Source: a bacterium
GTDB lineage: Bacteria; Hinthialibacterota; Hinthialibacteria; Hinthialibacterales; Hinthialibacteraceae
Direction of reading: 5' to 3'
Assembly (NCBI GenBank): GCA_963663405.2
Contig: CAXXSM010000100.1
Span: 6,351 to 70,350 of the forward strand
Length of the DNA stretch: 64,000 bases
Every line of letters starts with the position of its first letter. Position 1 is the first letter of the stretch. The position numbers and the translations under genes are program-made. Of this stretch, positions 1 to 23,768 are shown one piece after another. The notes below the pieces were generated by a model. That model did no database searches, was not told the DNA's origin, and saw only the letters and a program-made list of their open reading frames with translations.

Positions 1-1
1 C

Positions 2-934: not shown

Positions 935-1073
935 CGCTGGCTGTAACATAAAATTAATCACATAAATCGTATGGTGAGGTGCGCAAAATATCTGAGACAT
1001 TTGACCCAATCGCGTTAAAAATCGTTTGCATTGCTGATTAGAGAGAAATGTCTCGCTCGATAGCAAGGTCTCT

Positions 1074-1259
1074 TCACTTTTTGCCTCTCGCCGACAGGAC
1101 TTTTTGTTGTTCAAACACAAAACCGCTCAGTTTAGGTAAAATCAATTTCTTTCCAGCGGGGAAAAGGAAAATTGCAACTATTGCAGAGACAAAGGCAGAT
1201 GCACAGACAACGGGATCTCCAAAATTCTTAAAAAATTCCATTAACCAATCCATCATCAT
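1074..1259 (-). CDS. Small hydrophobic protein (61 aa), function unknown
   Basis: GAGG lies a few nt upstream of the ATG cluster. One clear hydrophobic helix (VVCASAFVSAIVAIFLF). No family recognised. Confidence 0.25.
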   Translation of the reverse strand: MMMDWLMEFFKNFGDPVVCASAFVSAIVAIFLFPAGKKLILPKLSGFVFEQQKVLSARGKK

Positions 1260-1303
1260 AACCTCTGTTTTATTTATTGTTTTTCCTTAAACAACATAAC
1301 GTT

Positions 1304-1412
1304 CTGCGTGACCGGACGGGAAAACGATCTCGACCTATTAGAAAGACACGTTCAATGATAACTGTGCAAAAGTTAAAAATGGCATCGTTTTCCCGGTCCG
1401 CTGTCTACGCAG
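1304..1412. repeat. Long imperfect inverted repeat / hairpin
   Basis: Left arm CTGCGTGACCGGACGGGAAAACGAT (1304-1328); right arm ATCGTTTTCCCGGTCCGCTGTCTACGCAG (1384-1412). The core is 12 bp perfect (CGGGAAAACGAT/ATCGTTTTCCCG) and CTGCG/CGCAG closes the stem. Confidence 0.6.
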
Positions 1413-1428
1413 TTGTTGTGTGCAATTT

Positions 1429-2133
1429 TCATTTTTTAGCCGATCTATTTTTGTCCCAATCCAGAGTTCGAGCTTTTGCAATTTTTAATTGATTTAGATT
1501 TAAAAATCTCTTTGTCTTTGTAATCATTTCTATGGACCGATGTAAACCGTTCTGAAATGCTAATTCGAACCATACATAGCTTTCCAGAAAATCCTGTTTT
1601 ACACCAGCCCCTTGGTAATACATCATACCTAAGTTATGTTGAGCACCTGGTTCATTTTGTTCGGCAGCTTTTTGATACCATTCAATGGCTTTCTGGTAAT
1701 CCTGATCTAAACCAATCCCATCCTTATACATACAACCCAGATTTAATTGGGCTGGAGCAAAGCCCTGATTGGCTGCTTTCAAATAAAACGCTACAGCTTT
1801 TCTTGTGTTTTTTGTTGTGCCTTGCCCTATCAAGTACATCTCACCAACTATATTTTGCGCCATAGAAAGGCCCTGCAAGGCTGATTTATAATACCAACCG
1901 AAGGCATTTTCATAACTCTGCTCAATGCCGTCACCATTTGCGTGCATAACTCCCAGTGTATACTGGGCATATGCATCTCCGCTTTCTGCTAATGGAATAA
2001 TTTCTTGAAGTGCATTTTGAAACTGCCCCTGTTGTATCTTTATCTCATAGCTTTTTAAATCATTTCCCGAAGTTTTCACGGAAAAAAATACTATGATCAG
2101 CAGTACCATTACCTTGTTTGCTAATTTAACCAT
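1429..2133 (-). CDS. Sel1-repeat (SLR/TPR-like) protein with signal peptide
   Basis: Repeated A.AQ..LG.MY..G.G...D...A..WY.KAA units. The N-terminus MVKLANKVMVLLIIVFF looks like a signal peptide. The ORF track start is 2157; the internal ATG at 2133 has a better RBS. Confidence 0.8.
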   Translation of the reverse strand: MVKLANKVMVLLIIVFFSVKTSGNDLKSYEIKIQQGQFQNALQEIIPLAESGDAYAQYTLGVMHANGDGIEQSYENAFGWYYKSALQGLSMAQNIVGEMYLIGQGTTKNTRKAVAFYLKAANQGFAPAQLNLGCMYKDGIGLDQDYQKAIEWYQKAAEQNEPGAQHNLGMMYYQGAGVKQDFLESYVWFELAFQNGLHRSIEMITKTKRFLNLNQLKIAKARTLDWDKNRSAKK

Positions 2134-2252
2134 TTGGCTACCTTTTGTGGCACACAACGTTTCGCATCACCGGCAACAAAAAGCAGAGCGAGGAACGAGC
2201 GGCGCTTTTTGGTGTCCGAGTGTATGAGCTTGTTGGCTTTCTTTGGTTATAT

Positions 2253-3200
2253 TTATTGTCTTACTCCAGGCCAATTGTTGAGTATTATCTCTGGAGTGAT
2301 CCATCTTGTATCCGCAGAGCAGGCTGCTGCGAGCCAATTTGCCTGTGGCAAATATGGCCGGATTTTCGAGCCAGAATTTTTTCGAGCCTCAACATCGTCA
2401 ACACTCCAACCGTCTCTATATTGAGTCAAAATCCATTTGACTCTTTCCCAAAGAGCCAATAGTGCCTCTTTTTGAATGATTCTTATATTACCTGCCCCGG
2501 CCTCTGCTTCTGGAGCAATTGTAGCTAGATGAGATACAATTGTACCCAACACGGTATATCCCAGGGAATGATACTCACTGTAAGCTCTATTGTATTGGTT
2601 ATGTGCCTGGCCTACATCTTTTGGAAATATTGATGTTTCTGGTGAGTGCTCAATTTTTGCTTCCCAAGTGACAACATATTTAATATTCCCACATGCCAAC
2701 CTCCACCGGCAGTCAGTGGCAGCTGAATGTCTTGGACGACTTGAGGAAAAAGCTAAAATACCTGCTAATTCTGTTAAGCCTTGGGAAAATTGATCATGAG
2801 TTTCGGATTGGAGTTTTTCGGTAATTTTATTGCAGTGTTTTTGAAATCGAGTTCCTCTGACGCCAAGTTTCTCGAGAAGATCATCAAATGAGCGGATAAC
2901 TAAGTCAGAATAATTTTCCGTAAAATGTTCCGTTGAGGCAGCCTGATGCCTTTCTCGATTTAATGAAGCTTTCATTCGGTTGAACCAGGATGAAATTCCT
3001 CCTCGCTGAATAGCTTCTTCTAAAATTGATAGAGCCTCGTTTTCACTCCCTTCGGATAATTTCTTGGCTGCTAGAAATTTGGACTTTGCTAAACACCAAC
3101 CGAAATACGCGCCTAATTCAATAAGGTTTTGTTCTTTAGCCCTATCGTAACAAAGTTGAAATTTGTCCGATGCAATCGAATAATTTTTTGAATGAAACAT
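2253..3200 (-). CDS. Hypothetical protein, possible PD-(D/E)xK-like core; maybe 5'-truncated
   Basis: 315-aa ORF. ..TDCRW..(x)..VVTWEAKIE.. resembles a D...ExK nuclease motif. The frame stays open about 100 nt upstream of the first ATG with no start codon. Confidence 0.5.
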   Translation of the reverse strand: MFHSKNYSIASDKFQLCYDRAKEQNLIELGAYFGWCLAKSKFLAAKKLSEGSENEALSILEEAIQRGGISSWFNRMKASLNRERHQAASTEHFTENYSDLVIRSFDDLLEKLGVRGTRFQKHCNKITEKLQSETHDQFSQGLTELAGILAFSSSRPRHSAATDCRWRLACGNIKYVVTWEAKIEHSPETSIFPKDVGQAHNQYNRAYSEYHSLGYTVLGTIVSHLATIAPEAEAGAGNIRIIQKEALLALWERVKWILTQYRDGWSVDDVEARKNSGSKIRPYLPQANWLAAACSADTRWITPEIILNNWPGVRQ

Positions 3201-3310
3201 TGCAGACCAGCCAATAATTTCATTTTTTGCTAATTCTGTATCATCTTCCTGTATCTCATCAGCAGGAGTTTCTACTTGTAAATCATTTAACTCAGAATCA
3301 AATACAATTT

Positions 3311-3871
3311 ATGAATAAAATTGATTTTTATTCGATCGAACGATTTAAACATGTACAATTGCGAGACGAAACTTATCACATGTTAACGAATCCAGAGCAT
3401 TATATGATTTCTCATAAATGCTATATTGTGAGGCTGAATAGGTTTTTGTTTGAAGACGCATACAGCGGTAAAATTATTTCTTACAAATTAAAATATATGA
3501 GAGAAATAACCAACGCTCGAGAAGAATCATATGTAACTTCAGCTCTGTATGATCATACAGAATCTCAATCTTCAGAAATGTTAGTAAAGGACTTATTAAA
3601 AAGACTATTAATTTCTATTAATTCTATCCCTGATCCAAAAGAAAAATTTTTATTTTTTATGCATAAATATGTTTGTATGAGTAAAAAGGAATGTATGGAC
3701 CTGTTGCATATATCGGAAGAGAAAGAATTTAGAGAAATGATTGCTCATGCAAATACGATCCTTCGTCTCAAACTTGAATCGATCAATAATGATCTTCAAA
3801 CAAAAGAGTACCTTCTAAAATCTGATATTTTTGTGGATTCTCATCCGGATTCGCCGGCTGAAAAGGATTAG
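3311..3871 (+). CDS. Hypothetical protein with C-terminal sigma-70 region-4-like HTH
   Basis: The C-terminus ..IPDPKEKFLFFMHKYVCMSKKECMDLLHISEEKEFREMIAHANTILRLKL fits the region-4 pattern (Lp...r.vf.....s..E.a..l.is...v......A...Lr..L). ATG at 3311 chosen over the track start 3227. Confidence 0.4.
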   Translation: MNKIDFYSIERFKHVQLRDETYHMLTNPEHYMISHKCYIVRLNRFLFEDAYSGKIISYKLKYMREITNAREESYVTSALYDHTESQSSEMLVKDLLKRLLISINSIPDPKEKFLFFMHKYVCMSKKECMDLLHISEEKEFREMIAHANTILRLKLESINNDLQTKEYLLKSDIFVDSHPDSPAEKD

Positions 3872-3879
3872 GTGAGATT

Positions 3880-4287
3880 ATGAGAGATATTTATGAAGAA
3901 ATTCTTGCTGATATTGAGAACCAAAACCTAGACAAAGTGTTAGATTTTTTTCATGATGAAATCTACACTTGCTTGGAGATTCATTCCCTGACAGATCGGT
4001 GCCAAGAAAGGATCGACGAAACTCAGATAAAGGAATGGATCAACAAAAAACAAACGAAAACAGAATTTCTGGATTTTCTTAGTTTACTTGCAAAGTCTCC
4101 CAAAAATATGAAAATCCTCGTTGACTATTTGAATTCCGATGACTTTTTATTTGATTTCTACTCCCGTCCACAGGAATACATTCAATTCATTCTTTATATC
4201 CGTGGCCACAAATTTCGCGAATTTGAACTTAAAAAGGGATCTTCTATATCTTTTCTCCAATTCGTCCCGGTGATCTTTGTGAATTAA
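3880..4287 (+). CDS. Hypothetical protein; probably continues to 4511 after a frameshift at an A5 run (about 4231-4235)
   Basis: ORF 3880..4287. The adjacent frame opens at 4233 (KGIFYIFSPIRPGDLCELKDNEGEVIWSG...) and runs into ORF 4305..4511. Confidence 0.4.
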   Translation: MRDIYEEILADIENQNLDKVLDFFHDEIYTCLEIHSLTDRCQERIDETQIKEWINKKQTKTEFLDFLSLLAKSPKNMKILVDYLNSDDFLFDFYSRPQEYIQFILYIRGHKFREFELKKGSSISFLQFVPVIFVN

Positions 4288-4665
4288 AAGATAATGAAGG
4301 AGAAGTGATTTGGAGTGGCCAAGCGCCCGGAAACCAAACAACTCATACAGATGAAAACATCCGTATGTCCGCTAAAACATCTTACGATAAAGATATCGAT
4401 AATGATTTTATCTCTATGTATAAAGAAAAGATATCCGATATTCCTTTAGTTTTAGAATTTAGAAAATCGAATATTGATTCTTCCCCTTATCTTTTCCTAT
4501 CTCACCAGTAATCGTCGTTCTTTTATGGAGATTAACCATGGAGATAGATCATCTTTCGCATATTGCCCATGTTTATGCGCCAGTTATTTTACTGGATGGA
4601 AATGATCATGTAGTGGGTTCATTCCTCGCTCATTCATTGTTGTTTGTAAATGGTCATCATCGAAA

Positions 4666-5166
4666 GTGTCGATTAATTGGCTCGATCTTGATTCAAGCCC
4701 TTCATCTATCCGTTCTGACACAGTTAGTAATACAAATGAAAAAATCCTACCTTATGTGCTCACCTTTCTAGAACCCTTGATAAACAAAAAGAAAGAATAC
4801 CCTTGTTTTACGATCGAACAAAAACTGACCGACTCGGAAACAGCGATTAGAAAGGAGAAATTTTCATTAGAGGATCTATCCGCTGGGATAGCGATTACCA
4901 TCGGTTTGCTTTCTTCGGCGCTCAAAATTCCTCTTTCTCAAAATTTTTTTTCGACAGGTTGCATAATAGACAATCAAGGACACATCGGGATCGTGTCTCA
5001 CATCTCCCAGAAGTGCAAATGCGCTTTACACGATCATGCCAAAAGCTGGAAAACCATTTTAATCCCAAACGAGCGAGCAACACCATCATCTGCAAACTCG
5101 AGTTATCCTTCTGACTATATTGATATCCTAGAAGAATATCAAAATGTAGAAGAAATGTTTTCATAA
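4666..5166 (+). CDS. Lon-protease (S16) catalytic-domain-like protein; N-terminal part probably in ORF 4538.. in another frame
   Basis: EDLSAGIAITIGLLSSALKIPLSQNFFSTGCIIDNQGHIGIVSHISQKCKCA...ILIPNE aligns motif-for-motif with the Lon C-terminal domain (PSAGIA..L.S......P......TGEI...G.V..IGG...K..AA...LIP.EN), including the Ser and Lys positions. Confidence 0.55.
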   Translation: MSINWLDLDSSPSSIRSDTVSNTNEKILPYVLTFLEPLINKKKEYPCFTIEQKLTDSETAIRKEKFSLEDLSAGIAITIGLLSSALKIPLSQNFFSTGCIIDNQGHIGIVSHISQKCKCALHDHAKSWKTILIPNERATPSSANSSYPSDYIDILEEYQNVEEMFS

Positions 5167-5532
5167 AAAAAAACATATCTGTATAATAAAATATCAGATA
5201 TAGCGAAACATGGAATTATATCCTCGATAAGGAAGAATTACTGATTTGGCTTTTTAAGGAAAATGGTTATAACTTGGCACAAAATTAAACTTACTTTTAG
5301 ATCCCATCCTAGGTAAATCACTAAAACAAAATGCCGAAAAATGCGATTGCAAGATATGAAGATATTGTATTACAATATACTACAAAAAAGAAGTGAAGAA
5401 ATTCATTTGGTGGATGGATTTAATCCTTGGTAATCTAGAGATCTCTCCACGAATTCCAAATTCGTTAATCAATTTGATACTCCATGTTTTTTATGATACT
5501 GAGTTGAAGGAACATGAAGATATTGTATTATT

Positions 5533-5949
5533 ATGGTGGGAACATCGGATCGAGATATAAAAATCCAAATACCATATATGATCTTTTCAAAATTTTACGC
5601 GCAATACCTGTTAACCCTTTTTAAACAAATCTATGAGCGATATGAACCGAAATCTTTTACCATACGAAATATGCTTGTCTCCTTGAGTGAGAATAACCAA
5701 TATAGAGAATTAAGCAACGCTCTACTTATTCTTGGCCGAAAAATATCATGTGAACACGCAATCAATTATTTTAAGGACGATTTAATTCCAATATTAGAGG
5801 CTTATGTAGGAACCTTTGCAGAAATGTATAGAGCGGCCGAATTGGAATGGGAGAATTTTACCAAAAGATCTCCCCATATCAATTCAACGTCCATACCTGA
5901 GTCAGAAGAACAGGTTCAAAACTGGAATAAGAAAGTATTGTTGGGATAA
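5533..5949 (+). CDS. Hypothetical protein (same frame as the 6148.. methyltransferase ORF, separated by one TAA)
   Basis: 138-aa ORF. The stop TAA at 5947-5949 is followed by an open frame in the same phase through to 6999. Confidence 0.4.
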   Translation: MVGTSDRDIKIQIPYMIFSKFYAQYLLTLFKQIYERYEPKSFTIRNMLVSLSENNQYRELSNALLILGRKISCEHAINYFKDDLIPILEAYVGTFAEMYRAAELEWENFTKRSPHINSTSIPESEEQVQNWNKKVLLG

Positions 5950-6147
5950 ACACAGAATATATCACGATTTCATCGAGACCTTCTCTTCGTATTTATCTTT
6001 CACAAATCAAATATTTTCCTTAAGTCCCTTTTTTTTTCAAAGCAAACATGTTATCCAAAACTACATTGGTTTTATCACGAAAGAGAAAAGGCAAAGAAAA
6101 AACAAATATCTATACTCACTTGGATTTGCGATGACCAGCGACGTCCA

Positions 6148-7316
6148 TTGGTGGATTATATTGATGAATTGGTATTCAGTGAATTGCATCAAGGAATACG
6201 CTCACTGACATATCTCTTTGAGCAACTTGATGATTCAGGTACGGAAGAATTATTTAAACCGATGACACCTAAAATGCGAATACGCATTGATAGTGATTTA
6301 TCGAAGATGAGATATTATATCCCTTATAATTCTAATGAAGATAACGGAAATGTTGTTAATAATCCACTACTACTGTGGCAAGGATCAACCGATTTGTGTG
6401 AAATGTGGAGATCAAATGATTGGAATGAAAATAAATGTGAATTGTCATTTTTACCAAACTACAAAACATCAAATCCCCCCCCGAAACTTGGTATAAGTGA
6501 AATATTCTCTTGGCATAATTTTGTTGTTGAAATCGATGGCATTGAGATATTCTTCAATCAGATATTTGAATGGCCTCCCTCCATAGATTCGTTATTTTTT
6601 GTAGAGACCTTAGACAACCATTTTGCGGATAACTTATGCAATGTTAAAAATGTCTGGGATGTTGGTTGCGGTACGGGAATAATTGGAGTCTCAATTGCCA
6701 AGAAATACCAAAATGTCGAGTTATTATTGTTAAGCGATTTAGATCGTAAAAAAGGATTGTTATCTAAGTGGAATGCAAATTACAATTTAAGACAAAGATT
6801 AACACAACAAACTATAAGATACAAATTTATGACGGGAGAAGGATTGTCTTGTAACGAACAGAATCGAAGGTATGATTTATTAGTTTGTGCTCCACCTTAT
6901 TTACCGGAGAGAGATATTTCATCATACAATTGGAATAGATCGAGCGACGAGTGGCACAATTCTATTAGAAGATGTAGTGCTGAATGGTTTTCGACATAGT
7001 CAGGAAGTCGTTCTACAATTTTCAAAAATTGCTTGGCCCGAATTCATTGCGTCTCTTGAAAAATCTGGATGTGATTACAAAATGCCTAGCAGAAAAATCA
7101 GTCCCTGTTAGAATCCCTTCGATCCAACCTTATACACCAGAAGAACATGGGATCAATAGTTCTCATCCGCAATATGAAATCTTTCTTGATAATTATAGAA
7201 AATTAAGAGACTACACTATCTGGCTTGAAGATCAGAACCGAATATATCAACGAAATGAAAGAAATTTCAGATATTGGCATGATATCATAGTAGTCCAGTT
7301 ACTTAAGGGGAGATAA
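6148..7316 (+). pseudogene. HemK/PrmC-like SAM-dependent methyltransferase, apparently split over three frames
   Basis: Motif I is VWDVGCGTGIIGVSIA and motif IV is LLVCAPPYLP (an APPY variant of NPPY/DPPY). The sequence continues plausibly in frame 2 (..GTILLEDVVLNGF..EVVLQFSK) and then frame 0 (ORF 6984..7316). Confidence 0.55.
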
Positions 7317-7477
7317 AAAAATTTTTAGAATTATAACATCTCAATATTTGAAATGACCAAGCCACTATTACTAACAAAGATTACATTTATGATGGAATTT
7401 AGCTATGAATTACTTCGTTTTATCGAACTGGACTATTGCTGAGAATCCGTTACACAACATGAGATGGAATACATTTT

Positions 7478-8516
7478 TCACAATTTATCAATATCTTCCC
7501 TCAATCGTTGGTCATTAAGGTGCGCATATCTCTGTGTTACTTGCAGTGTTTTATGACCCATCAATTCGCGAAGAGAATGAATTCCAACGCCCTTCTGAGC
7601 AAGGTGAGCGCCAAAGGAGTGCCGTAATCCATGAAGCCCTAGATCTTGTCGAATACCGAATCTTTCACCTGCGATCCGCCGAACTTTCTCCCACGGTTTA
7701 CGGATATCTGCACGCGCTGAGCCATCAGGATTTTTTACAACTACTCCAATACGGACGTTCTTCGGGGAACCGACGAGAGGATATCAAGCAATTTGGGATG
7801 GATTGGAACCCCTAGGAATTGTTTATTCTTCCTTGTATCGATTATGATTCTACCTGAATCAATTTTGATCTCATCCCACTTTAATCTAATGATTTCTCCT
7901 TTTCTGAATCCGCCATATCTAGCTAACGCAACAGTCAAGTATATAGGCTCACCACATTCCTTTGCTATTTCGAGCAATTTATCGCACTCGCTTTCAGTAA
8001 AAAAACGTGGCGGTTTAATCTCTAATTTTAGATGTTCGATTTTGGGAGGAGTCCAATCATTTAGGTCTTCCCAAAAATCGGAGGCTTTTTTTAGCATGGA
8101 CAGTAGAACACCGATATACATATTAATACTCCGCTTTGATAATCCACGATTAATTAAGTATGTTTGATATCCTTGTAATTGTTCCTTCCCCAATTTATTT
8201 ATTCGAATATCGCAATCGAAGTATTTTTAATATTTTCATTCGATATAATTCTTTTGATTTCGTAGGTCCATTTTTTTGATCTTCTTTCCTTTGACCATTC
8301 TAAGTATTTTTCCGCAATTTCCTCTAATATTCTTTTCGTACCAATGGTCTTTACGACTGATCCATGACTCATTTTTTTATCAAAGTCACGCTTTTTGACA
8401 AGCGCGATACGTCGATCAGATGTTTTTGTGCTTTTGTATGAACTTTTTCTAGTGAGAGGATGTGTGAATCGGATTTGCCAGTAAGGAGATCCATTACGTT
8501 TGATAAGCGTGGACAT
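7478..8516 (-). pseudogene. Tyrosine recombinase / phage integrase, broken into three frames
   Basis: N-terminal ORF 8199..8516 (GSPYWQIRF...). Middle ORF 7741..8193 (..ARYGGFRKGEIIRLKWDEI..). The C-terminal catalytic part was read by hand in a third frame down to the stop at 7478-7480 (..HGLRHSFGAHLAQKGV..LMGHKTLQVTQRYAHL). Confidence 0.85.
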
Positions 8517-8754
8517 GTTACAAACCTCCTAATAGGATTTTACTATATGATATTTCTCAAACACTTTTTAGAAGAAAAATTGTCTGATATTTGTCTGATT
8601 CTATACGTAAAAAATGGTTGAATAGACGTTAAGTGATGTCACTAAACGGTAATTCTATTATAATAAATAAGTGCAAATAATTGAGATACTTATACTTTAA
8701 ATACTATAGGATAAGTGGGTTAAATATTCAAGAGGTAATAATAGGAACAACCGA

Positions 8755-8820
8755 CTTCTAAGCAGTGGGCCGCAGGTTCGAGTCCTGCCGGGCGTATACT
8801 GATTTTTCTGGACTTACGAA
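8755..8820 (+). repeat. tRNA-Arg(UCU) 3' fragment = att core, left copy
   Basis: 8755-8802 is identical to 23641-23688 (48 nt: CTTCTAAGCAGTGGGCCGCAGGTTCGAGTCCTGCCGGGCGTATACTGA). It contains the anticodon loop (CU-UCU-AA), the T-arm GCAGG-TTCGAGT-CCTGC and the acceptor 3' strand. Similarity continues to 8820 with 4 mismatches. No D-arm or 5' acceptor lies upstream. Confidence 0.85.
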
Positions 8821-8942
8821 TCCTCCTCCAAGTGACAAAAAATTCCAAGCTAACTCAGAGCTAACAAGTTTCTTCACTCCGTGGGCATTGCGCCTGCTTG
8901 GCGAGGATGTCGCGGGCGCGAGGAGCGCGTTCACTCTCTAAA

Positions 8943-8971
8943 CCTTGGGGAACTGGTTCCCCAGGGTTTTT
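8943..8971 (+). terminator. Rho-independent terminator-like hairpin
   Basis: CCTTGGGGAA-CTGG-TTCCCCAGGG forms a 10-bp stem (one G-U pair) followed by TTTTT. Confidence 0.6.
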
Positions 8972-9180
8972 CCTCTTTCCCCTACCACCAGCCTGGCCGT
9001 CCTCATTCTTACCAGAGAGTTGTTTCCCCCCGCCTCGGCTTCGAGGAGGGTGACGCGCTGAATCGTTGTGTGGTATAAGTTATGGTGAGTTGGTGTTGAT
9101 GGTATCTGGTTCAAAGGCGGATTACAGCCGAATAAGAAATCCAATTTTTAAATCGCGATTCAAATCACTAAGGTTAAAGC

Positions 9181-9992
9181 ATGACATCTTCTTTTTGCGC
9201 TTATATTGATGAATCAGGAGATGAAGGTTTTCGGTTTTAGAACGAACTTATCCACACAAAAAAGCAGCGATTGGTTTGTTTTAAGTGCTTTCATCACTCG
9301 AAAACAGAATGATTTGGAAACTGTCAAATGTATCGACCAGATTCGTAAAGATTTTGACATTAACCCTAAAAAGCATGTCCATTGGAAAAAAACTGAAACA
9401 CCCTCAAAAAGTACGTTATTCTCAAATTCTTGCTAGTCTTCATGCTCGAACAATTGGAATTTGCGTTCACAAACCTTCTCTTTTAGAACCGGAGAAATTT
9501 AAAGAACCTTATCGCCTTTATTTTTATGCCGTTCGGTATTTGATGGAACGTTTATCTTGGCTTGCTCGTGATAATCATAATCCAAGAAAATGGGGTGGAG
9601 ATGGAACAATTAGTATTCTATTTTCTAATCGGCAAGGAATGCCATACGATGAAATGAAAAATTATCTGAGACTTTTAGAAATTAAAAAAAACAACAATCA
9701 AGATATTCGAATAGAGTTTCAGCATACGCCTTTAAATAAAATTAGCACTCAAACGCCTGGTCGTTCGATGGGATTACAGTTAGCAGACGCTTGTGCTGGA
9801 GCATTTTTCAATGCCTTAGAACGTGACTTATTTGGGAATACAGAACCGCGCTATATCGAATTATTGAAGCAAATTTTATATAAACACGATGGAACATCTT
9901 GGGGTTATGGAACAAAAATAGTACCAAGAGAAGCCATTAACAATTTGAAGGAAGAATCCAGTCTTGAATGGTTGTGGAGGATGAAGGAATAA
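9181..9992 (+). pseudogene. DUF3800-family protein, two frameshifts
   Basis: The ATG at 9181 gives MTSSFCAYIDESGDEGF (the DUF3800 DESG motif) and then a stop. The sequence continues in ORF 9206..9436 and then ORF 9285..9992 (..GLQLADACAGAF..). Removing one T from GGTTTTCGG restores the first junction. Confidence 0.75.
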
Positions 9993-10159
9993 AAAAAAAG
10001 ACAGATCCCAGGTCGTAGGAGCCCACGCACTAAGCGCTGCCGTCCTGAGGACGACCTACGATAAATCCTGCGCATATCTGTCTATTAAAATTATACCCTC
10101 TTTTGAATAAGTTCGTCAACAGAAATTTCAAAAAAAATTGGGGATTGTATTTCGCCTGC

Positions 10160-10414
10160 TCACTCCCCCCACACCTCCGGCGGAACCGGGCCGTACTCTT
10201 TTTCGAGGATATTCAAAACCATACGCCAATGTTTCGGCGTATATCGCCTAATCCAACTCTCAAGCGTCTGTTTTGGAACGTCCAAAACCTTTTCGAGCGT
10301 TAGAATGCTCTGCCTGCGTGACGGCTCACCAATGTTATCCAGATACCAGCGGAATTTACACTGAAATTCATTTTTCCCGTCCTCCGGGCGTAGTGTTGGT
10401 TCATTCGGTGTCAT
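10160..10414 (-). CDS. Small HTH DNA-binding protein, repressor-like position (divergent from the early operon)
   Basis: 84 aa. ..LTLEKVLDVPKQTLESWIRRY.. looks like an HTH. The start lies 23 nt from a perfect 19-bp palindrome. Confidence 0.55.
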   Translation of the reverse strand: MTPNEPTLRPEDGKNEFQCKFRWYLDNIGEPSRRQSILTLEKVLDVPKQTLESWIRRYTPKHWRMVLNILEKEYGPVPPEVWGE

Positions 10415-10436
10415 TCTTATACCTCACAACGTTGTA

Positions 10437-10455
10437 TCTCATATAGTATATGAGA
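10437..10455. promoter_or_regulatory. Perfect 19-bp palindromic operator candidate
   Basis: TCTCATATA-G-TATATGAGA. The half-site CTCATATA recurs at 10513-10520, overlapping the -10 of the rightward promoter. Confidence 0.6.
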
Positions 10456-10493
10456 AACTCATAAAAAAAATAGGGGAATTTACAAAAAATGGG

Positions 10494-10522
10494 TTGACAG
10501 ATACATGAGATACTCATATACT
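10494..10522 (+). promoter_or_regulatory. Near-consensus sigma-70 promoter (rightward, early operon)
   Basis: TTGACA (10494-10499), a 17-nt spacer, then TATACT (10517-10522). Confidence 0.65.
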
Positions 10523-10570
10523 ATTAATGGAAATGAGCATTATAACCAACCGAAGAAGGAGAATGAGACA

Positions 10571-10792
10571 ATGACACGGGGAACGATGAGCGAAAAAACC
10601 GAAATAGACACCAATCAAGCATTATTTTTCCGCGATGGCGATATGTCATTTGTTACGCGGCCACCGGAGCCAGAGGAAATCGAGCGAGCCAGGGGGCTGG
10701 TTGTTGAAGTCGATGGATACTGCTACGTCATTGGCCGGACTGCGCGGGTTGTGGGATTTGTTGAGTCCGCGTGTCAGAAAATTGACTACTGA
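10571..10792 (+). CDS. Hypothetical phage early protein (73 aa)
   Basis: AAGGAG lies 9 nt upstream of the ATG at 10571. The track start 10505 lies inside the promoter. Confidence 0.5.
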   Translation: MTRGTMSEKTEIDTNQALFFRDGDMSFVTRPPEPEEIERARGLVVEVDGYCYVIGRTARVVGFVESACQKIDY

Positions 10793-11047
10793 GCAGGCGT
10801 GGTGAACAAATGCAATCCACAGTTAATTCATTTTCGTTCACCATTTCTCAACAGTAATTTATCCGCTAACTAACGCGCTATCAATGAGTTATCGATGGAA
10901 TTCACGCGGTGTATTGAAAAATGTTAATAAATGGGGTATTGCGTTTCCCGCAAATGGTAGTAGAGTTCTACGGCTGAGAGCCAAAAACCGAAGTAGCAGG
11001 TAAGAGTAAATGCGTGGACCAACGCATAGCACAATATCGAATTTTCG

Positions 11048-11100
11048 AAGTCCCTCACGGTGAGTGTTGGTCCGCGCAGCCGTGAGGGACTTTTCTGTTT
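11048..11100 (+). terminator. Strong intrinsic terminator inside the early region
   Basis: AAGTCCCTCACGG (11048-11060) pairs with CCGTGAGGGACTT (11080-11092) and is followed by TTTCTGTTT. The loop contains GTTGGTCC, complementary to an upstream GGACCAAC. Confidence 0.7.
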
Positions 11101-11118
11101 ATGGGAAAGGAGCGGGCA

Positions 11119-11436
11119 ATGTCAAAAAAAGTTTTGCAGTTAAAGCCAATTGATTGGAGCGATCCGGAAGCCGTCAAAGCATACAACCGGGCATATTATC
11201 GGGCAAACTGGAAAACGATTCGCGAGCGGCAAAGAAAGTACAAAAAAGAACAGAGTAAGGATTTGACTGATAATTATCTTTTTTGGCTCTTGAAAGATAA
11301 GCATGGTATTGACCGCGAATATGTTACCCCAGAAATGCTTGAAATGTACCGGGATATTATACGTGTCAAGCGCAGTATGCGGGACGGGAATCCTGTTGAC
11401 ACGGTAATATTAAAAAGTTTGGTGCGCAGTCTCTAA
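11119..11436 (+). CDS. Hypothetical phage protein
   Basis: AGGAG lies 6 nt upstream of the ATG at 11119 (MSKKVLQLK..). Basic, helical composition. Confidence 0.55.
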   Translation: MSKKVLQLKPIDWSDPEAVKAYNRAYYRANWKTIRERQRKYKKEQSKDLTDNYLFWLLKDKHGIDREYVTPEMLEMYRDIIRVKRSMRDGNPVDTVILKSLVRSL

Positions 11437-11526
11437 ACATATGAAATCCAATGAAAGGAGGTGTAAACAAAAACTGAGAGAACCAAGAGTATAGAATTTC
11501 AAATCTAAACTATGAGGTAAAAAACA

Positions 11527-11985
11527 ATGCAAGAAATAACAGTAACACCGACAGACAAGCGAAGTCAACACATTGCACGACTACGAGAAGAGCACCGCGC
11601 TAGATTGGAAGCCGAAGCAAGCGCAAAGGAAAAGGAAGAAATGCAAATCAAAGAAGATGAACAGAAATTGAAAGCAAAAGGCTTAAAAGCAGCTGAGGAT
11701 ATGAATAAAGCAGATTTTGAAGAGATTCTCAAAATAGGAGAATTAGAACCAAGGTCTAGCACCAGATACATAGTCGAGAATGGTAATCCAAAAAAGGATA
11801 CATATCAAGAAATGAAAGAGGAGGTTCGGAAAATTCTTAAGGAATATGACGGACCAAAGCCAAAGAATGTAAACGGTCATTTACTTTACAAATATCATGA
11901 AGTTTGTGCCTGGTTTGGTGGCGTCATAGAATATTGGAATTCTATCAAAGATGAGGTCGAAGCCGTAATCCCTAATTCAGAATAA
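11527..11985 (+). CDS. Hypothetical coiled-coil phage protein (paralog A)
   Basis: RLREEHRARLEAE.. lysine/glutamate-rich coiled coil. The C-terminus ..YWNSIKDEVE is shared with the next gene. Confidence 0.6.
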   Translation: MQEITVTPTDKRSQHIARLREEHRARLEAEASAKEKEEMQIKEDEQKLKAKGLKAAEDMNKADFEEILKIGELEPRSSTRYIVENGNPKKDTYQEMKEEVRKILKEYDGPKPKNVNGHLLYKYHEVCAWFGGVIEYWNSIKDEVEAVIPNSE

Positions 11986-12090
11986 TTAATTTAGTTTTTG
12001 GTTTGGTAGGGTATGGTATGGTTTGGTTTGGGTATTACAACAGCAAAGAACAGTGTTTTTATATATAAAATGAAAGTTGAGGTAAATATC

Positions 12091-12498
12091 ATGCAAGAAC
12101 AAACTAACAAAGAAATCATCGAACGGTTGAGAGAAGAACGTCGCGCTGTAATAAAAGAAGAAAAGCGAATTGCAGAAGAAAAACGACAAAAGCAATTAGC
12201 AGCGGAACAGGCCGAGAAAAACAGACAAGAGAAATTGGAGGACGAACAAAAGAAATTATACACACGCGGCTATGAAGCCGGTAAAAAAATACATTATTAC
12301 AATATGCGGATAATTGTGAATTATCACATTAATGGTAACACATTCAAAGATGAGAGGGAAGAAAAAGCATTTTTAACGGTTTTAAAAGAACACGGTTTTG
12401 GGCCGGGAACCCAGCTTCCCAAGATTAATATTTGGGTTGAAGGCGTAAATGCCTACTGGGAAACAATCCGGGATGATGTCGAATTCGATAAACCATAA
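12091..12498 (+). CDS. Hypothetical coiled-coil phage protein (paralog B)
   Basis: GAGG RBS before the ATG at 12091. ERLREERRAV.. and the C-terminus ..YWETIRDDVE parallel the previous gene. Confidence 0.6.
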   Translation: MQEQTNKEIIERLREERRAVIKEEKRIAEEKRQKQLAAEQAEKNRQEKLEDEQKKLYTRGYEAGKKIHYYNMRIIVNYHINGNTFKDEREEKAFLTVLKEHGFGPGTQLPKINIWVEGVNAYWETIRDDVEFDKP

Positions 12499-12651
12499 CT
12501 AAAATAATCATAAATTCCGGCGCCGGAATGAATTTTTTTAGACCAATTTACTATATATAGTAAAAAATGTGGAGAAATTAGAAAAAAAGTTTGCGCGGCT
12601 TGCATTTTTGGTATATCATATAGTGTATACACTCCAAGAAGGAGCCGTGCA

Positions 12652-13302
12652 ATGGCTAAAGTGAAGTTAGAAACATTGTGTTTCCGATGCAACGAAGAAA
12701 CCGCCAACAAGATTCGCAAACGCGCTGATGAGATGGGACTTTCGCTTTACTCATATCTCAAGCAACAGGCGTTGAGCCGCGAGCCATTGACTCAAGCGGC
12801 GGAGGATTATATCCGCGATATCGCCCGTGGCGTTGCGGAACAATTCGGAGGAGAGCCGGATATTAATTTCGCAAAAACGATGATACTGAATGACGCTACT
12901 GCTGGTTATCTGGCTCATTTCCATGAAGAGGGAATCGACTCACTCGGAGCGCGTCCGTTTCTATTTTTTAAACAGGGCAAACCACTTAGCCCAGAGGAAC
13001 AGCAAGATGCGATGATAAACCGGCGTGTTGAAGAAATCCGGCGGCGGAAAAAAGAATTGGAAGAATGGAAAACGTATGCGAACGCATGCCGGAAACAATC
13101 GGAAGACTGGCAGGCGCTAACGATGGAGGTCGTGCGTGAATCAACTAAAGACAATCCAAATATGGAGGCTATCGCCAACCGATTCAATTTGAAAGCAATT
13201 CCGGAACCAGCGGAAGAGGAGCCAACTTCACCGGCTGAGCCGGAACCGGACGCGATTAAAAACCGGTACAATCCACCGAAAATGGCAAAAGTGAAATCAT
13301 GA
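12652..13302 (+). CDS. Ribbon-helix-helix (MobC/CopG-like N-terminus) protein
   Basis: KLETLCFRCNEETANKIRKRADEMGLSLYSYLKQQAL fits a strand-helix-helix RHH pattern. Confidence 0.5.
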   Translation: MAKVKLETLCFRCNEETANKIRKRADEMGLSLYSYLKQQALSREPLTQAAEDYIRDIARGVAEQFGGEPDINFAKTMILNDATAGYLAHFHEEGIDSLGARPFLFFKQGKPLSPEEQQDAMINRRVEEIRRRKKELEEWKTYANACRKQSEDWQALTMEVVRESTKDNPNMEAIANRFNLKAIPEPAEEEPTSPAEPEPDAIKNRYNPPKMAKVKS

Positions 13303-13679
13303 ATTATCTGGACTGGGAGAACCAAAAATACGAATCCGGCGAATCGGGCGGTGAGTCAGGCGAGAGTTTTATTCCTGCGCCGGTTGTCGCGTTTATTCGA
13401 TGTATTTTAAAGAACGTTAATGATAAATATCCATCGTTGGAACTCGATTTTGGAACCGTCATGGCCAATCTGTTGATTGACTGTGTGGCCAGATATCGCG
13501 CGGAAATGGACCAATTTGGAAAGGCTGTAACTGGTGGACGTGGAGCATTTCTGCTAACAACAGAAGGAGAAATGAGGCGGGGGCAGGATTTATACGACGT
13601 GTTGAAAGCACATTACGCGGCGGAAATTCAGAGGCACACGGATAATGAAAGCAAACGGGAAATCGTCCCGTTGAATTGA
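13299..13679 (+). CDS. Hypothetical phage protein
   Basis: 126-aa ORF whose start overlaps the previous stop (ATGA). Confidence 0.5.
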   Translation: MNYLDWENQKYESGESGGESGESFIPAPVVAFIRCILKNVNDKYPSLELDFGTVMANLLIDCVARYRAEMDQFGKAVTGGRGAFLLTTEGEMRRGQDLYDVLKAHYAAEIQRHTDNESKREIVPLN

Positions 13680-13775
13680 TTTATAAAAAATAAAGCCGAG
13701 CGGCGTCAGTTTGGCGACGGAGGCCACTCGGCGAGAAAAGTAGCACAATAGGCTAGGAGCCTACGGGCTATTCTT

Positions 13776-15119
13776 ATGGTACTATCAATGTCGGTTGATG
13801 GCAATGGAAAAAATGAGAAATCCGGAGGAAAGTTAAGCCGGATCAATCCGCCTAAGCGCACGATTTTCCTGCCTGCCTCCACTTTTGAGACAATATGCTC
13901 TTATCCAATCACAAAGGGCGCGATCCTCTTTTATATAGCGATTAGATCATACGCGAATAGTGAGGGCTGGTGCAATCCATCCATAAAAACTTTCGCCGAA
14001 ATGCTCAGCTGTGACCCGCGATCAATTAAGCGCCATATCCAAGAATTGTGTGAATATGGATTGCTCTCTGTCGAGGTGAATAAAGGGCATTCATCGAATG
14101 ATTATTATTTGAATCTCGAACCAAAGAGAGGGGACAATTTTGTCACCTCTGTCACGGCAAAGAGAGGGGACATTTTTGGTCAAAAAACCGGAAGAGAGGG
14201 GACAAAACGTGTAAAGAGAGGGGACATTCCTGGTAAGGCTAACAATATAAACAGTAATAGAACATCATCAGTAAGAACAATTGATGATGATGAACTAAAT
14301 CCCGCGGGAAAAACACGCAACAGCAACAGCATTCCAAACCTGGATTTTCTTTCAAAAAACAAAAAAGAACTGGCTCTCAAATGCTGGAAAATACATCGCT
14401 CGAAATGGGGATCGGCGGAAGAATTTTCAGATACGCTCCGGCGTATTTCAGAAACGGAATCAGACGAAACGCTCCACGGCGCATTGGAAGATAATTCTGC
14501 TCACAGAAATCCACAGGATAGTGAACGTCTTATGGCGGCGGTATACCGTCTCCGGAAAATCTATCCATTAAATCCAAGCAAGAAGAGATTCGGCGAATGT
14601 GAGAAAGCGAAAGAAGAAGATATCCGCCGGGCTGAAGAGGAAGAGCGAAAACGCTTCCAAAAGGCGCGTGAAAAGGTCCAACGTCACCGGCGCGAGGGCT
14701 GGACGGATGACGAAATAATCCGCAACGATTTTAGCCGATGGGAGAAAGACGAAGTCCTGGAATGCGCTATATCGAAAGAAGCGATTGAAAAGCATTATGC
14801 AGAATTGGAAGCATGGGAAGAGGAAAAGCGAAAAGCCAGAGCCGCGGCAAAAAGAAAAGACCAAGAAGAAAAGCGGATTCTCCGGCTCGAAAAGCAAAAA
14901 CAAGAATACGCCGTATTCATCGAAAAATTGGAAGGCATAACTGAAGCTAAGGCCGCTTTCCAATTGCGTTATCGATTCAACCTCGACGGTAAGTCAATTA
15001 CTCCACAAACCACCGAAGATAAAAAACGGCTTATCGAAATTCTTGAGCGCATAGGTATGCGCTTCGACGTGAATAAGAGTGGCTGTCCGGTTAATTGGGT
15101 TGTTCCGCAGAAAGGATAG
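13776..15119 (+). CDS. Replication-initiator-like protein (winged-helix N-terminal domain), carries internal iterons
   Basis: ..YANSEGWCNPSIKTFAEMLSCDPRSIKRHIQELCEYGLLSV.. is a winged-helix/HTH typical of phage O/DnaD-like initiators. Four iterons lie in the linker, followed by a charged C-terminal half. Confidence 0.6.
   Translation: MVLSMSVDGNGKNEKSGGKLSRINPPKRTIFLPASTFETICSYPITKGAILFYIAIRSYANSEGWCNPSIKTFAEMLSCDPRSIKRHIQELCEYGLLSVEVNKGHSSNDYYLNLEPKRGDNFVTSVTAKRGDIFGQKTGREGTKRVKRGDIPGKANNINSNRTSSVRTIDDDELNPAGKTRNSNSIPNLDFLSKNKKELALKCWKIHRSKWGSAEEFSDTLRRISETESDETLHGALEDNSAHRNPQDSERLMAAVYRLRKIYPLNPSKKRFGECEKAKEEDIRRAEEEERKRFQKAREKVQRHRREGWTDDEIIRNDFSRWEKDEVLECAISKEAIEKHYAELEAWEEEKRKARAAAKRKDQEEKRILRLEKQKQEYAVFIEKLEGITEAKAAFQLRYRFNLDGKSITPQTTEDKKRLIEILERIGMRFDVNKSGCPVNWVVPQKG
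14124..14226 (+). repeat. Four direct iterons AAGAGAGGGGACA (putative origin of replication inside the initiator gene)
   Basis: Copies start at 14124, 14160, 14192 and 14214. They are followed by an AT-rich stretch (about 14230-14300). Confidence 0.7.
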
Positions 15120-15123
15120 AAAA

Positions 15124-15312
15124 ATGAAAAACGTTGAAATGGAAGTGAAAGAAAACAAATTACTCATCGAAGTCGATCTCACGCAGGATCACGGGCCGAG
15201 TAAGAGCGGTAAAACCAACATCGTTGCGACAACCGCCGGAAATGTAGCGGTACCGGGAAATAATTCCGTCCGGCTTGGATTGAATGTCTATAAATACTCG
15301 GAGGAAGAATAG
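15124..15312 (+). CDS. Small hypothetical phage protein
   Basis: AAGGA RBS before the ATG at 15124 (MKNVEMEVKENKLLIEVDL..). Confidence 0.5.
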   Translation: MKNVEMEVKENKLLIEVDLTQDHGPSKSGKTNIVATTAGNVAVPGNNSVRLGLNVYKYSEEE

Positions 15313-15317
15313 AAGCG

Positions 15318-15848
15318 ATGGACTTAATCCGTACCACATTTGAAACAAGCCGCCTGATGGAATTCTTTGATGAAAAAGAATTAACAAAACAAATCGGCCA
15401 CAATCGAGGAATGTGGCCGGTTGCGCTCCTAAAAGAATTAATTGACAACGCGCTGGACGCTTGTGAGAGCGCCGGAGTCAATCCGGTTATCGAAGTCTAT
15501 TTGGAGAAGAATAGTCTCTCTGTCCAGGATAACGGGCCGGGTATTCCACCGGAGACAATCGAGAAATCACTTGATTATAAAATTCGCGTATCGGATAAGA
15601 ATAAATATGTCTCACCAAGTCGAGGTCAACAAGGAAACGCCTTGAAATGTGTGTGGGCTGCTCCGTTCGTTGCTACAGGATCTGGAATTATCGAGATAGG
15701 CACTAGGGGCCAATTACATGAAATCGATGTTTCACTGGATCGATTGACGGAAGAGCCGGAGATTGGCCACACAATCACCGATGATTTTGTAAAAAATGGC
15801 ACTTTTGTAAAAATCCATTGGCCAGAGATAGCATTGCTCTCAGGATGA
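15318..15848 (+). CDS. GHKL (Bergerat-fold) ATPase domain protein, topoisomerase VI-B-like
   Basis: MEFF..(x)..LKELIDNALDA (N box), VQDNGPGIPPE (G1 box) and SPSRGQQGNALK parallel the Topo VI-B N-terminal motifs (AEFF, RELIENSLDA, DNGIGIP, RGxxGxG). Only 176 aa. Confidence 0.65.
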   Translation: MDLIRTTFETSRLMEFFDEKELTKQIGHNRGMWPVALLKELIDNALDACESAGVNPVIEVYLEKNSLSVQDNGPGIPPETIEKSLDYKIRVSDKNKYVSPSRGQQGNALKCVWAAPFVATGSGIIEIGTRGQLHEIDVSLDRLTEEPEIGHTITDDFVKNGTFVKIHWPEIALLSG

Positions 15849-15886
15849 AAGTAAAACGGTCGATCGGAAAGGAGCACAACAACATC

Positions 15887-16066
15887 ATGACTAAGATAAC
15901 GGAACAAACAATAGTGCAGGTCTATTGCCAGCGGTGTGGTCATGCGTTGGCAGGCGCGCCGATAGGATCGAGAGTCTACTGTCCTCCATGCCGTGTATGG
16001 ACATTGGCCAAAGAAACAGCGGACCAACCATTGCTCAAGGAGACGAGGTCATGCAAGGAGAAATAG
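15887..16066 (+). CDS. Small zinc-ribbon protein
   Basis: CQRCG...(x)...CPPC four-Cys pattern. Internal ATG at 15887 of ORF 15818..16066. Confidence 0.4.
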   Translation: MTKITEQTIVQVYCQRCGHALAGAPIGSRVYCPPCRVWTLAKETADQPLLKETRSCKEK

Positions 16067-16275
16067 TTTTGAGCGCTAACCAACTGCGCAGCATCATCCA
16101 CGCTGGACTATGCAATGATCGCATGTGGACCGAGGGCTGCTGTCATGAGATCGCTAAGCAGTCGCACTCCAACGGCGAGATATCGCGCGTATCGTTCGCG
16201 GATCGTGACGCAAGACATTCATTTAAAAATGGAATGAAATTTATGCGTTCTGTTTTGCGCAATGATATTAAGTGA
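16051..16275 (+). CDS. Hypothetical phage protein
   Basis: AAGGAG lies 8 nt upstream of the ATG at 16051. Confidence 0.35.
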   Translation: MQGEIVLSANQLRSIIHAGLCNDRMWTEGCCHEIAKQSHSNGEISRVSFADRDARHSFKNGMKFMRSVLRNDIK

Positions 16276-16313
16276 TATATAATATATTTAACAACAATAT
16301 AGGAGTATACATT

Positions 16314-16601
16314 ATGAGCGTAGCATTCGAGCATTCAGGAACTTCATTACATTTGATCGTTGATTTGAGCGCTGTTGAGAGTCTCAGCAACCAGGACGGC
16401 GGGACGGTCCACGTGGGCAGCATGCACGGCGAGATTAACGAGACGTTAACGAAAGAGGGCTATACGATAGATTTATCTGTCCGCCGGGCACTCACTCCGA
16501 GCGAGCGCGAGCAGTACGGCGCTGACCTCCAACTTGATGCGGCTCCAACGGCCAAGCGCGGAGGGGGAGGGCGGTCCAAATCTCCACAGCCTCAAAAATA
16601 G
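16314..16601 (+). CDS. Hypothetical phage protein
   Basis: AGGAG RBS before the ATG at 16314 (MSVAFEHSG..). Confidence 0.5.
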   Translation: MSVAFEHSGTSLHLIVDLSAVESLSNQDGGTVHVGSMHGEINETLTKEGYTIDLSVRRALTPSEREQYGADLQLDAAPTAKRGGGGRSKSPQPQK

Positions 16602-16674
16602 GAACCGTATAGCCTCGCATCGCGCACACAACCGCAATTCCGGTTAGTTTAGCAATTTGTAAAGGAATATAGCA

Positions 16675-17130
16675 ATGCCAAGACAACCAGTACCTACCAA
16701 CCTAAAGATCCTGCGCGGCAATCCAGGCAAGCGCGCAATCAACAAAAATGAACCGCAGCCGAGCGCGGACGGCGTCAAGTGTCCGTCCTGGTTATCACGC
16801 GACGCCAAGGCCGAGTGGCGGCGTGTGGCGCCGGAGTTAAAGCGGCTCGGCCTATTGACAGTCGTTGACGTGTCCGCGCTGGCAATGTATTGCGAGTCAT
16901 ATTCTCAATGGCGCGAGGCCGTCCGGATTATCGAGCGCGAGGGCCAAACGTATTCACATGACGGACTCATCCGCACTCATCCGGCGTGTCACGTGGCTAA
17001 CAATGCGGCGCGGACGGCTAACCTATTCGCCGGGCAGTTCGGAATGACGCCATCGGCGCGAACGAAATTATCTATCGAGCCGCCACAGCAACCGAGTTTG
17101 GTTGACAAATTTTTGAACCGGAGTGGGTGA
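16675..17130 (+). CDS. Phage terminase small subunit, P27 family
   Basis: ..LKILRGNPGKR.. at the N-terminus and ..FGMTPSARTKL.. at the C-terminus are characteristic of P27-family TerS. Confidence 0.8.
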   Translation: MPRQPVPTNLKILRGNPGKRAINKNEPQPSADGVKCPSWLSRDAKAEWRRVAPELKRLGLLTVVDVSALAMYCESYSQWREAVRIIEREGQTYSHDGLIRTHPACHVANNAARTANLFAGQFGMTPSARTKLSIEPPQQPSLVDKFLNRSG

Positions 17131-19076: not shown

Positions 19077-19080
19077 ACGC

Positions 19081-20309: not shown

Positions 20310-20331
20310 CATTTTACCGAGGTAAAAAAAA

Positions 20332-21667: not shown

Positions 21668-21673
21668 GCTAAC

Positions 21674-22099: not shown

Positions 22100-22180
22100 G
22101 GTTTCATCCAACCTGCTCGGCTTGTCCATTCCGTGCGGGTAGGTTTTGGTCTCGCCGTTCTCAGGCGGGCTTCGTCGAAC

Positions 22181-23706: not shown

Positions 23707-23768
23707 CATAGATTTGGGTAGCGGTAATCTCCAAAGTAGCGTCACGGTAGCGTTTGAAATCAAAAAAA

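Follow-up and report, generated by a model that had tools for sequence, protein, structure and literature searches.

We identified two copies of the 3′ part of a tRNA-Arg(UCU) gene in the stretch of DNA analysed here (64,000 nt, hereafter the window), each lying beside the start of a tyrosine integrase gene of its own, and these two repeats are very likely the att scars of integrative elements that inserted in tandem at a tRNA-Arg(UCU) gene reading from left to right. Copy 1 would be the joint between element 1 (integrase Int1, visible at 3309-8802) and element 2 (integrase Int2, 8803-23640), copy 2 would be the right end of element 2, and a third, decayed element may begin beyond it. Since both tRNA fragments are on the forward strand, each element is expected to the left of its fragment, and the array should have the intact gene at its left end. 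What we infer here is the crossover point, the order in which the elements integrated and the present place of the intact tRNA gene.

The tRNA-derived repeat and its two integrases

Segments 8755-8802 (copy 1) and 23641-23688 (copy 2), both on the + strand, constitute an exact direct repeat of 48 nt that begins at the anticodon loop of the tRNA and reaches 6 nt past its discriminator. The likeness between the copies reaches 66 nt with four mismatches (93.9%), so that both lengths given in a previous sequence-only reading of this DNA were reproduced, and the longest alignment covers 79 nt at 87% identity (8742-8820 and 23628-23706). A search with the 42-mer core yielded exactly two matches in the 64-kb window at up to three mismatches, with none expected from 100 shuffles. 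The 48-mer being a generic repeat, an observation that the sequence-only reading itself had named as one that would overturn its proposal, could be ruled out within the window, where there are just two copies with an integrase beside each.

Parsed as a tRNA, the repeat consists of the anticodon loop CUUCUAA, the 3′ anticodon-stem strand GCAGU, the variable loop GGGCC, the T arm GCAGG-UUCGAGU-CCUGC, the 3′ acceptor strand CGGGCGU and the discriminator A. The identity between the two copies begins at the C of CTTCTAA, i.e. at the anticodon loop, and the same start was observed in about 20 relatives. The repeat is 100% identical over 42-45 nt to the intact, ARAGORN-called tRNA-Arg(tct) genes of two loci, L001 and L002, which upholds the original assignment of the fragments to the 3′ part of tRNA-Arg(UCU), from the anticodon loop to the acceptor. 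Copy 1 matches both of these genes at 42 of 42 positions, and the identity of copy 2 to the L001 gene runs 3 nt further to the left (23638-23682). L001, from an uncultured Planctomycetia MAG, with the tRNA-Arg(tct) gene at 1115-1191, was the sole exact match when one genome per species was scanned, and L002 was the single further exact match in the JGI metagenomes scanned. In both loci, tRNA-Arg(UCU) is the last gene of a Pro(UGG)-Leu(UAG)-Arg(UCU) cluster and the site is unoccupied; beyond the tRNA, no synteny or other resemblance to the window was found in them. A search of viral contigs with the 42-mer gave no match. The likeness to enterobacterial argU that had been pointed out earlier is also borne out, with 90% identity over 40 nt between the repeat and an annotated E. 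coli tRNA-Arg.

The integrase gene next to copy 1, Int1 (7478-8516, − strand), is distributed over three frames, with two frame changes near 8178-8235 and 7762-7777, and two of its pieces match the Pfam Phage_integrase domain (PF00589). Over its full length, it is 61% identical to an intact 344-aa protein (P0243). The gene next to copy 2, Int2 (22318-23474, − strand), encodes a P4-like tyrosine integrase in which the C-terminal 259 codons are intact, and the N-terminal ~130 codons, within which all four of its frame changes fall, are spread over three frames. The C-terminal ORF hits the catalytic domain (PF00589) and is 72% identical to the closest intact relative, the 384-aa protein P0002, which is composed of Arm-DNA-bind_3 (PF13356), Phage_int_M (PF22022) and Phage_integrase (PF00589) domains. 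Int2 aligns across its frames with residues 1-379 of P0002 and thus displays the three-domain organization of the P4 type; the depositor's gene call (P0001) comprises only a 190-aa C-terminal ORF. The coordinates previously given for Int1 stand, and the start of Int2 is likely the ATG at 23474 and not 23490, as had been proposed. Between start codon and repeat there are 238 nt in the case of Int1 and 166 nt in that of Int2, in agreement with the claim that a leftward tyrosine integrase starts within 150-240 nt of each copy. Int1 and Int2 are ~36% identical across 53 residues of their C-terminal parts, close to the catalytic tyrosine, a comparison by which they are only distantly related to each other.

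The sequences between the integrase starts and the cores are the putative P arms of the two elements. That of element 1 (8517-8754) contains three short repeats of the TAAGTG type. That of element 2 (23475-23640) contains two extra copies of (A)CAGTGGGCC, the sequence of the right half-site of the core, at 23477-23485 and 23511-23520; these copies, detected with blastn-short, match tRNA positions 41-50 and look like an integrase-binding array.

The same layout recurs in relatives of the two integrases, about 20 of which, at other tRNAs, have a fragment that starts from the anticodon loop; it is found 140-280 nt before the start of the integrase gene and on the strand opposite to it. Two loci with Int2-like integrases (L004 and L005, 52-54% identical) carry a tRNA-Trp(CCA) fragment 150-185 nt upstream of the integrase start, and ARAGORN calls no tRNA at this position in either of them. 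Fragments of Lys(UUU) and Thr(CGU) occupy the same position in the Int2-like loci L208 and L209, respectively, as do Met, Thr, Lys or Arg fragments in ~15 more distant IMG/VR relatives, and an Int1-like relative (L207) has a Lys(CUU) fragment at the corresponding position. A whole unit is found on IMG/VR contig 3300023440_000532, which carries a tRNA-Met fragment (1961-2005, − strand), an integrase gene (2180-3418, + strand) and, at the far end, 17 kb from the fragment, an intact tRNA-Met gene (18,952-19,028, − strand). This arrangement, with the intact gene at the end far from the integrase, corresponds to the earlier expectation of an intact gene at the left end of the array in the window. 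The placement of an integrase beside a tRNA fragment is therefore normal in these relatives, and the window has the structure of an ordinary tandem array. The central proposal of the sequence-only reading, two elements in tandem at one tRNA gene, is accordingly retained, with an integrase of its own beside each displaced fragment and the same geometry in relatives.

Two further observations were made on these loci. In two IMG/VR members of the Int2 clade, L034 and L035, a complete tRNA-Met gene, not a fragment, is located on the opposite strand 425-485 nt upstream of the integrase, so that, in this clade, the P-arm position of some elements seems to be occupied by a whole tRNA gene. In L207, a short excisionase-like HTH ORF and a transposase fragment lie beyond the tRNA-Lys fragment and its trailer (8765-9690); this region is probably another decayed unit, and tandem remnants seem to be common at these sites.

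Probable attachment sites, trailer motif and the tRNA-like stretch at copy 2

Under the proposed mechanism, the attP of each element would contain a tRNA copy that starts at the anticodon loop and reaches the 3′ end, followed by a trailer of ~25 nt, and the tyrosine integrase would recombine this copy with the chromosomal tRNA gene, the crossover most likely falling within the 7 nt of the anticodon loop. In the integrated state, the tRNA gene would be completed at the left junction by the copy that the element brought, and its displaced 3′ part would come to lie at the right, by the integrase gene.

The extended repeat runs 18-24 nt beyond the tRNA, up to the motif GACTTACGAA, which forms its right edge in both copies (8811-8820 and 23697-23706, + strand). 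The 8-mer of this motif, GACTTACG, is present 13-25 nt past the tRNA end of fragments that represent three different tRNAs and are associated with two unrelated integrase families. In the form GACTTACG(A)A, it is located at 6546 in L004, 9790 in L005, 9687 and 11582 in L207, 1217 in L001 and 4168 in L002; in the last two loci, it lies 44 nt past the unoccupied tRNA-Arg(UCU) gene. The 8-mer was found nowhere else in the window and occurs once per locus, at the trailer, apart from one further copy in L207 (11582), just after the excisionase-like gene. As a universal feature of the Int2 clade, it had to be rejected, being absent from L208 and represented in L209 by a variant only, inside a terminator hairpin. 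The hosts of the att sites bearing GACTTACG appear to be PVC-group bacteria.

The bases that follow the motif differ between the two copies: those of copy 1 resemble L207 and those of copy 2 resemble L004, so that each trailer matches the integrase to its left and not the element to its right. This pattern fits a crossover located on the 3′ side of the anticodon loop, and GACTTACG could mark the true outer boundary or the crossover point of these att sites. Alternatively, it may be an arm-type site, or, by analogy with the proteobacterial relatives, in which the IHF consensus WATCAANNNNTTR is found at the equivalent place, a host architectural protein could bind to it. We regard it as a speculative and rather unlikely proposition that GACTTACG is an unrecognised shared att component or, separately, that the locus has lost tRNA-Arg(UCU), leaving the cell reliant on another copy that an element may carry.

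The sequence-only reading had also named a complete tRNA overlapping either repeat as an observation that would speak against it. ARAGORN reports none, but the Rfam tRNA model (RF00005) matches 23615-23682 (+ strand), i.e. copy 2 together with a degenerate 5′ half, over its full length with 31.3 bits, above the gathering score of 29; the D arm is absent from this match. One rival explanation is, hence, that this stretch is a working D-armless tRNA-Arg(UCU) and that the window contains an intact gene after all. Besides passing the gathering score over the full model, the stretch could form all seven acceptor-stem pairs, with ATGTCTG pairing with CGGGCGT by way of three G-U pairs, and all five pairs of the anticodon stem ATTGC/GCAGT, one of them G-T (in copy 1, the corresponding dyad, ACCGA/GCAGT, has three of five pairs). 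However, there is neither a D stem nor a D loop: in both the Rfam alignment and the fold, 11-14 nt take the place of the ~15 that are modelled, and the stretch lacks the complete cloverleaf of a functional bacterial tRNA gene. Its predicted fold is no better than that of shuffled sequences (z-score −0.41), most of the Rfam score comes from the true 3′ half (copy 1 by itself scores 19 bits), and tRNAs without a D arm are not known from bacteria. Given also the lack of an ARAGORN call and the whole tRNA present at this position in L034 and L035, we consider a working tRNA here very improbable indeed. The differences between the 5′ acceptor strand in 23615-23640 and the real 5′ strand GCGCCCG are all transitions, and, from sequence comparison, we read 23615-23682 not as a gene but as the probable decayed remainder of a full tRNA copy once present in the attP of element 2; a decayed vestige is the simpler reading because L034 and L035 carry a whole tRNA-Met at that position.

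Element borders, read support and the intact tRNA gene

Element 2 (8803-23640, + strand) is a phage-like element of 14.8 kb that, according to Pfam matches, encodes a DUF3800 protein, a NikA-like protein, an HTH_36 initiator-like protein, a small terminase, a tail-tape fragment, a portal protein, an HK97-type capsid protein and Int2. At its left end, there is a strong match to the Rfam DUF3800-VII RNA (9995-10082, − strand; 82 bits, gathering score 36), starting 3 nt past the end of the DUF3800-family ORF (9285-9992, + strand), on the opposite strand.

To the right of copy 2, a block of low GC content (23707-30600, − strand) contains retroelement-type repeats and genes for a reverse transcriptase and TIR-NACHT and TIR-FGE proteins (Pfam), and core genes, for an FGGY kinase, RecO, ProRS and RibF, follow from ~33 kb on. 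Because the genes of this block point at the att site, as do the late genes on the far (P′) side of the L004 att site, a third, decayed element may, by analogy, have its left (P′) end in this block; no third copy of the repeat, degraded forms included, was found in the 64-kb window by the 42-mer search or blastn-short. Repeats of 75-90% identity at 23897-24604, 27269-27393 and 28847-29550 (D1-D3) flank the reverse transcriptase gene (27308-28288) as well as genes with FGE-sulfatase-type C termini, a layout of the diversity-generating retroelement kind, and some X1 and X4 contigs connect 24208 to 29287, probably via those repeats.

What can be seen of element 1 beyond Int1, on the left, is an AT-rich cargo block, delimited by composition (3309-7477, + strand; GC 29-39%), in which the sole Pfam match is a methyltransferase; the GC content is 29-40% between 3.3 and 8.7 kb and 46-49% in core genes. 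To the left, the block abuts a 5′-truncated helicase-nuclease gene (2253-3308, − strand). The ORF at 2253-3200 extends in frame to 3308 without a start codon, and, in a comparison with 1.8 billion representative proteins, the ORF with this extension aligns only to residues ~520-875 of proteins of 850-875 aa, so that the C-terminal ~350 residues of an ~870-aa protein remain; the full-length relatives carry DEAD/ResIII and Helicase_C_2 domains in their N-terminal part. The missing start codon and the confinement of the alignment to the C-terminal ~350 residues therefore indicate that the gene was cut at ~3309. This is the exact border of the AT-rich block, and the first gene of the block begins there, without an upstream region.

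This breakpoint may be the scar of a deletion that took the left junction. The sequence-only reading had suggested that the junction was lost in a rearrangement at an IS1380 copy at the window start, for which we found no direct support, the real breakpoint being elsewhere, at ~3309. The IS1380-family transposase gene in question (1-934, + strand; DDE_Tnp_1_4, profile positions 162-429 of 435) is cut by the window start and is 98% identical to a 470-aa cluster representative. Between it and a Sel1-repeat gene, there is a long imperfect inverted repeat at 1304-1411 (CTGCGTGACCGGACGGGAAAACGAT ... ATCGTTTTCCCGGTCCGC...ACGCAG). The whole of 1-3308, with IS1380, the Sel1 protein and a defence-type helicase at 40-44% GC, also looks accessory, and the ~3309 breakpoint may, for this reason, be internal to a larger element 1.

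The public sequencing runs that contain the organism are complex metagenomes in which it is present at a depth of ~2-5x with patchy coverage. Unitigs from these runs are identical to the window wherever they align, reaching 5.7 kb and 13.5 kb in core regions and breaking up into pieces of 200-470 nt in the elements. All six frame changes in the integrases are located in stretches that lack unitig support: the gaps at 8046-8329 and 7754-7764 concern Int1, the second of them starting inside a C run beside a frame change, and the gap at 23054-23637 takes in all four frame changes of Int2. Five of the six coincide with mononucleotide runs of four or more. The same was seen in the accessory genes generally, where frame changes coincide with unitig breaks, mostly at mononucleotide runs, and long core genes are intact. 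Judging from these positions, the frame changes in the integrases may be consensus errors of low-coverage long reads, and the "decayed" state of the two genes is therefore not to be taken as demonstrated. The earlier description of the integrases as broken thus holds for the assembled sequence, with its two and four frame changes, respectively, but, as real damage to the genes, it may be a consensus artefact.

Read support also bears on the tandem arrangement itself, which, wholly or in part, might have been produced in assembly if two integrated elements, possibly from different strains, had been joined through the 48-66-nt repeat. The low depth of just ~2-5x, the patchy coverage, the lack of unitigs over the flanks of copy 2 and the clustering of frame changes at unitig breaks would all be compatible with such a join. 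However, unitigs that are identical to the window and extend over 5.7-13.5 kb in the core suggest long, accurate reads, by which a repeat of 66 nt would be spanned; one X1 unitig passes from copy 1 into element 2, covering 8755-8981 without a difference; and tandem arrays at tRNA genes are common (PMC4383910). We therefore consider an assembly artefact improbable. In the runs examined, independent unitig support is confined to this junction of copy 1 with element 2, and no unitig covers the flanks of copy 2 or the sequence just left of copy 1. Drops in coverage at 32.9 kb and 36.2 kb, considered as alternative junctions, proved to be plain contig ends.

Four observations count against tandem integration, which, nevertheless, is the reading that we prefer: unitigs support just the passage out of copy 1 to the right; on its left side, the Int1 block is seen to end at a truncated gene and not at a tRNA gene; the trailer of each copy goes with the integrase to its left rather than with the element to its right; and there is no intact tRNA or tRNA 5′ half in 1-8754. 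On the last point, the original failure to find such a sequence was confirmed: ARAGORN detects no tRNA anywhere in the 64-kb window, and the 5′ half of the L001 tRNA gene, used as a query in low-stringency blastn-short, had no match in it. The window represents 64,000 nt of a 72,345-nt contig and the absence concerns the window alone, with up to 8,345 nt of the contig lying outside it, so that this result does not amount to genome-wide loss. Moreover, AGA accounts for 5.3% of the Arg codons in 15 core genes, and, with these codons in use, a tRNA-Arg(UCU) must exist somewhere.

If the two elements are integrated in tandem, the functional tRNA gene would stand at the far-left end of the array, outside the window, that is, on the rest of the contig or on another contig, unless it was removed at ~3309. 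About half of the probability or slightly more goes, in our estimate, to an intact tRNA-Arg(UCU) further to the left or on another contig and somewhat under a third to its deletion at this locus, with another copy in service; what remains is taken up by assembly problems and other cases. A candidate for the left junction is an X1 unitig of 2031 nt, at a depth of 2.7 that matches the organism, which carries the 3′ part of an intact-type tRNA-Arg(UCU), with four mismatches to the repeat, and an AT-rich trailer. Many tRNA-Arg genes of other organisms aligned to the core with 3-6 mismatches, and none of these could be tied to this genome.

With the real breakpoint at ~3309, loss of the left junction stays a live rival. 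In that event, a deletion running from element 1 into the helicase-nuclease gene, at ~3309, would have removed the left junction along with the tRNA-Arg(UCU) gene of this locus, and another copy, possibly carried by an element, would decode AGA. Such a deletion would account for a gene at 2253-3308 that is devoid of ~520 N-terminal codons and ends where the AT-rich Int1 block begins, for the position of the first gene of this block right at the border with no upstream region, and for the lack of a tRNA 5′ half in the window, and the use of AGA for 5.3% of Arg codons in the 15 core genes shows that the function is needed. However, the accessory appearance of 1-3308 would place the breakpoint inside a larger element 1, up to 8.3 kb of the contig extends beyond the window, and tRNA-Arg(UCU), which is single-copy in many bacteria, would be costly to lose where this is the case. 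On balance, the deletion is possible, though unlikely.

Relation to known integration systems

Tandem integration at tRNA genes is a well-known pattern, and this locus leaves the understanding of tRNA-targeted integration unchanged. It provides a clean case of tRNA-Arg(UCU) serving as an integration hotspot in an uncultured bacterium, probably of the PVC group, in a region eroded on its left side, where two unrelated integrases have converged on one anticodon-loop site. For annotation, the boundaries of the 14.8-kb phage-like element are fixed, and many of the frameshifts in accessory genes of this assembly should be viewed with caution, as they may be consensus errors rather than decay. Some wider interest attaches only to the conservation of the trailer motif and to whether the tRNA gene has survived.

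Prophages such as DLP12 integrate at argU (tRNA-Arg UCU) of E. coli and share with the elements described here the tRNA-Arg(UCU) target, but the comparison is at the tRNA alone, and the host, the elements and the integrases are unrelated. Int2 resembles P4-type integrases in having an N-terminal Arm-DNA-bind_3 (DUF4102) domain followed by Phage_int_M and Phage_integrase domains; in contrast to the P4 type, the integrase gene here adjoins the displaced fragment and the block of identity begins at the anticodon loop. Furthermore, the use of many tRNA identities (Arg, Trp, Lys, Thr and Met) by one integrase clade is shared with the anticodon-loop ("A") att sublocation of tyrosine integrases (Williams 2002, Nucleic Acids Res 30:866, as cited in PMC4383910), whereas the repeat in the window passes the tRNA by 18-24 nt, up to GACTTACGAA, and the outer att boundary or the crossover could lie further 3′.

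A close parallel is with the islands catalogued by Islander, in which the regenerated tRNA gene is located at the upstream end of the element and the displaced 3′ fragment at the downstream end (Hudson, Lau and Williams 2015, PMC4383910); among 3919 islands, 125 tandem arrays and 2083 anticodon-centred sites were counted (PMC4383910). Islander calls are anchored by an intact tRNA gene, whereas in the window there is none, the left border is a truncated gene and the integrases are frameshifted. As in Islander, the displaced fragments have the orientation of the gene and a PF00589 integrase, frameshifted in this assembly, lies inside the island, and, as required of a tandem array, every member is equipped with a fragment and an integrase not shared with the other (Int1 with copy 1, Int2 with copy 2). 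The two elements resemble Islander tandem arrays in their gene-oriented direct-repeat fragments, in having one tyrosine integrase per unit and in the restoration of the gene by element-borne sequence, as would be expected here at the left end of the array.
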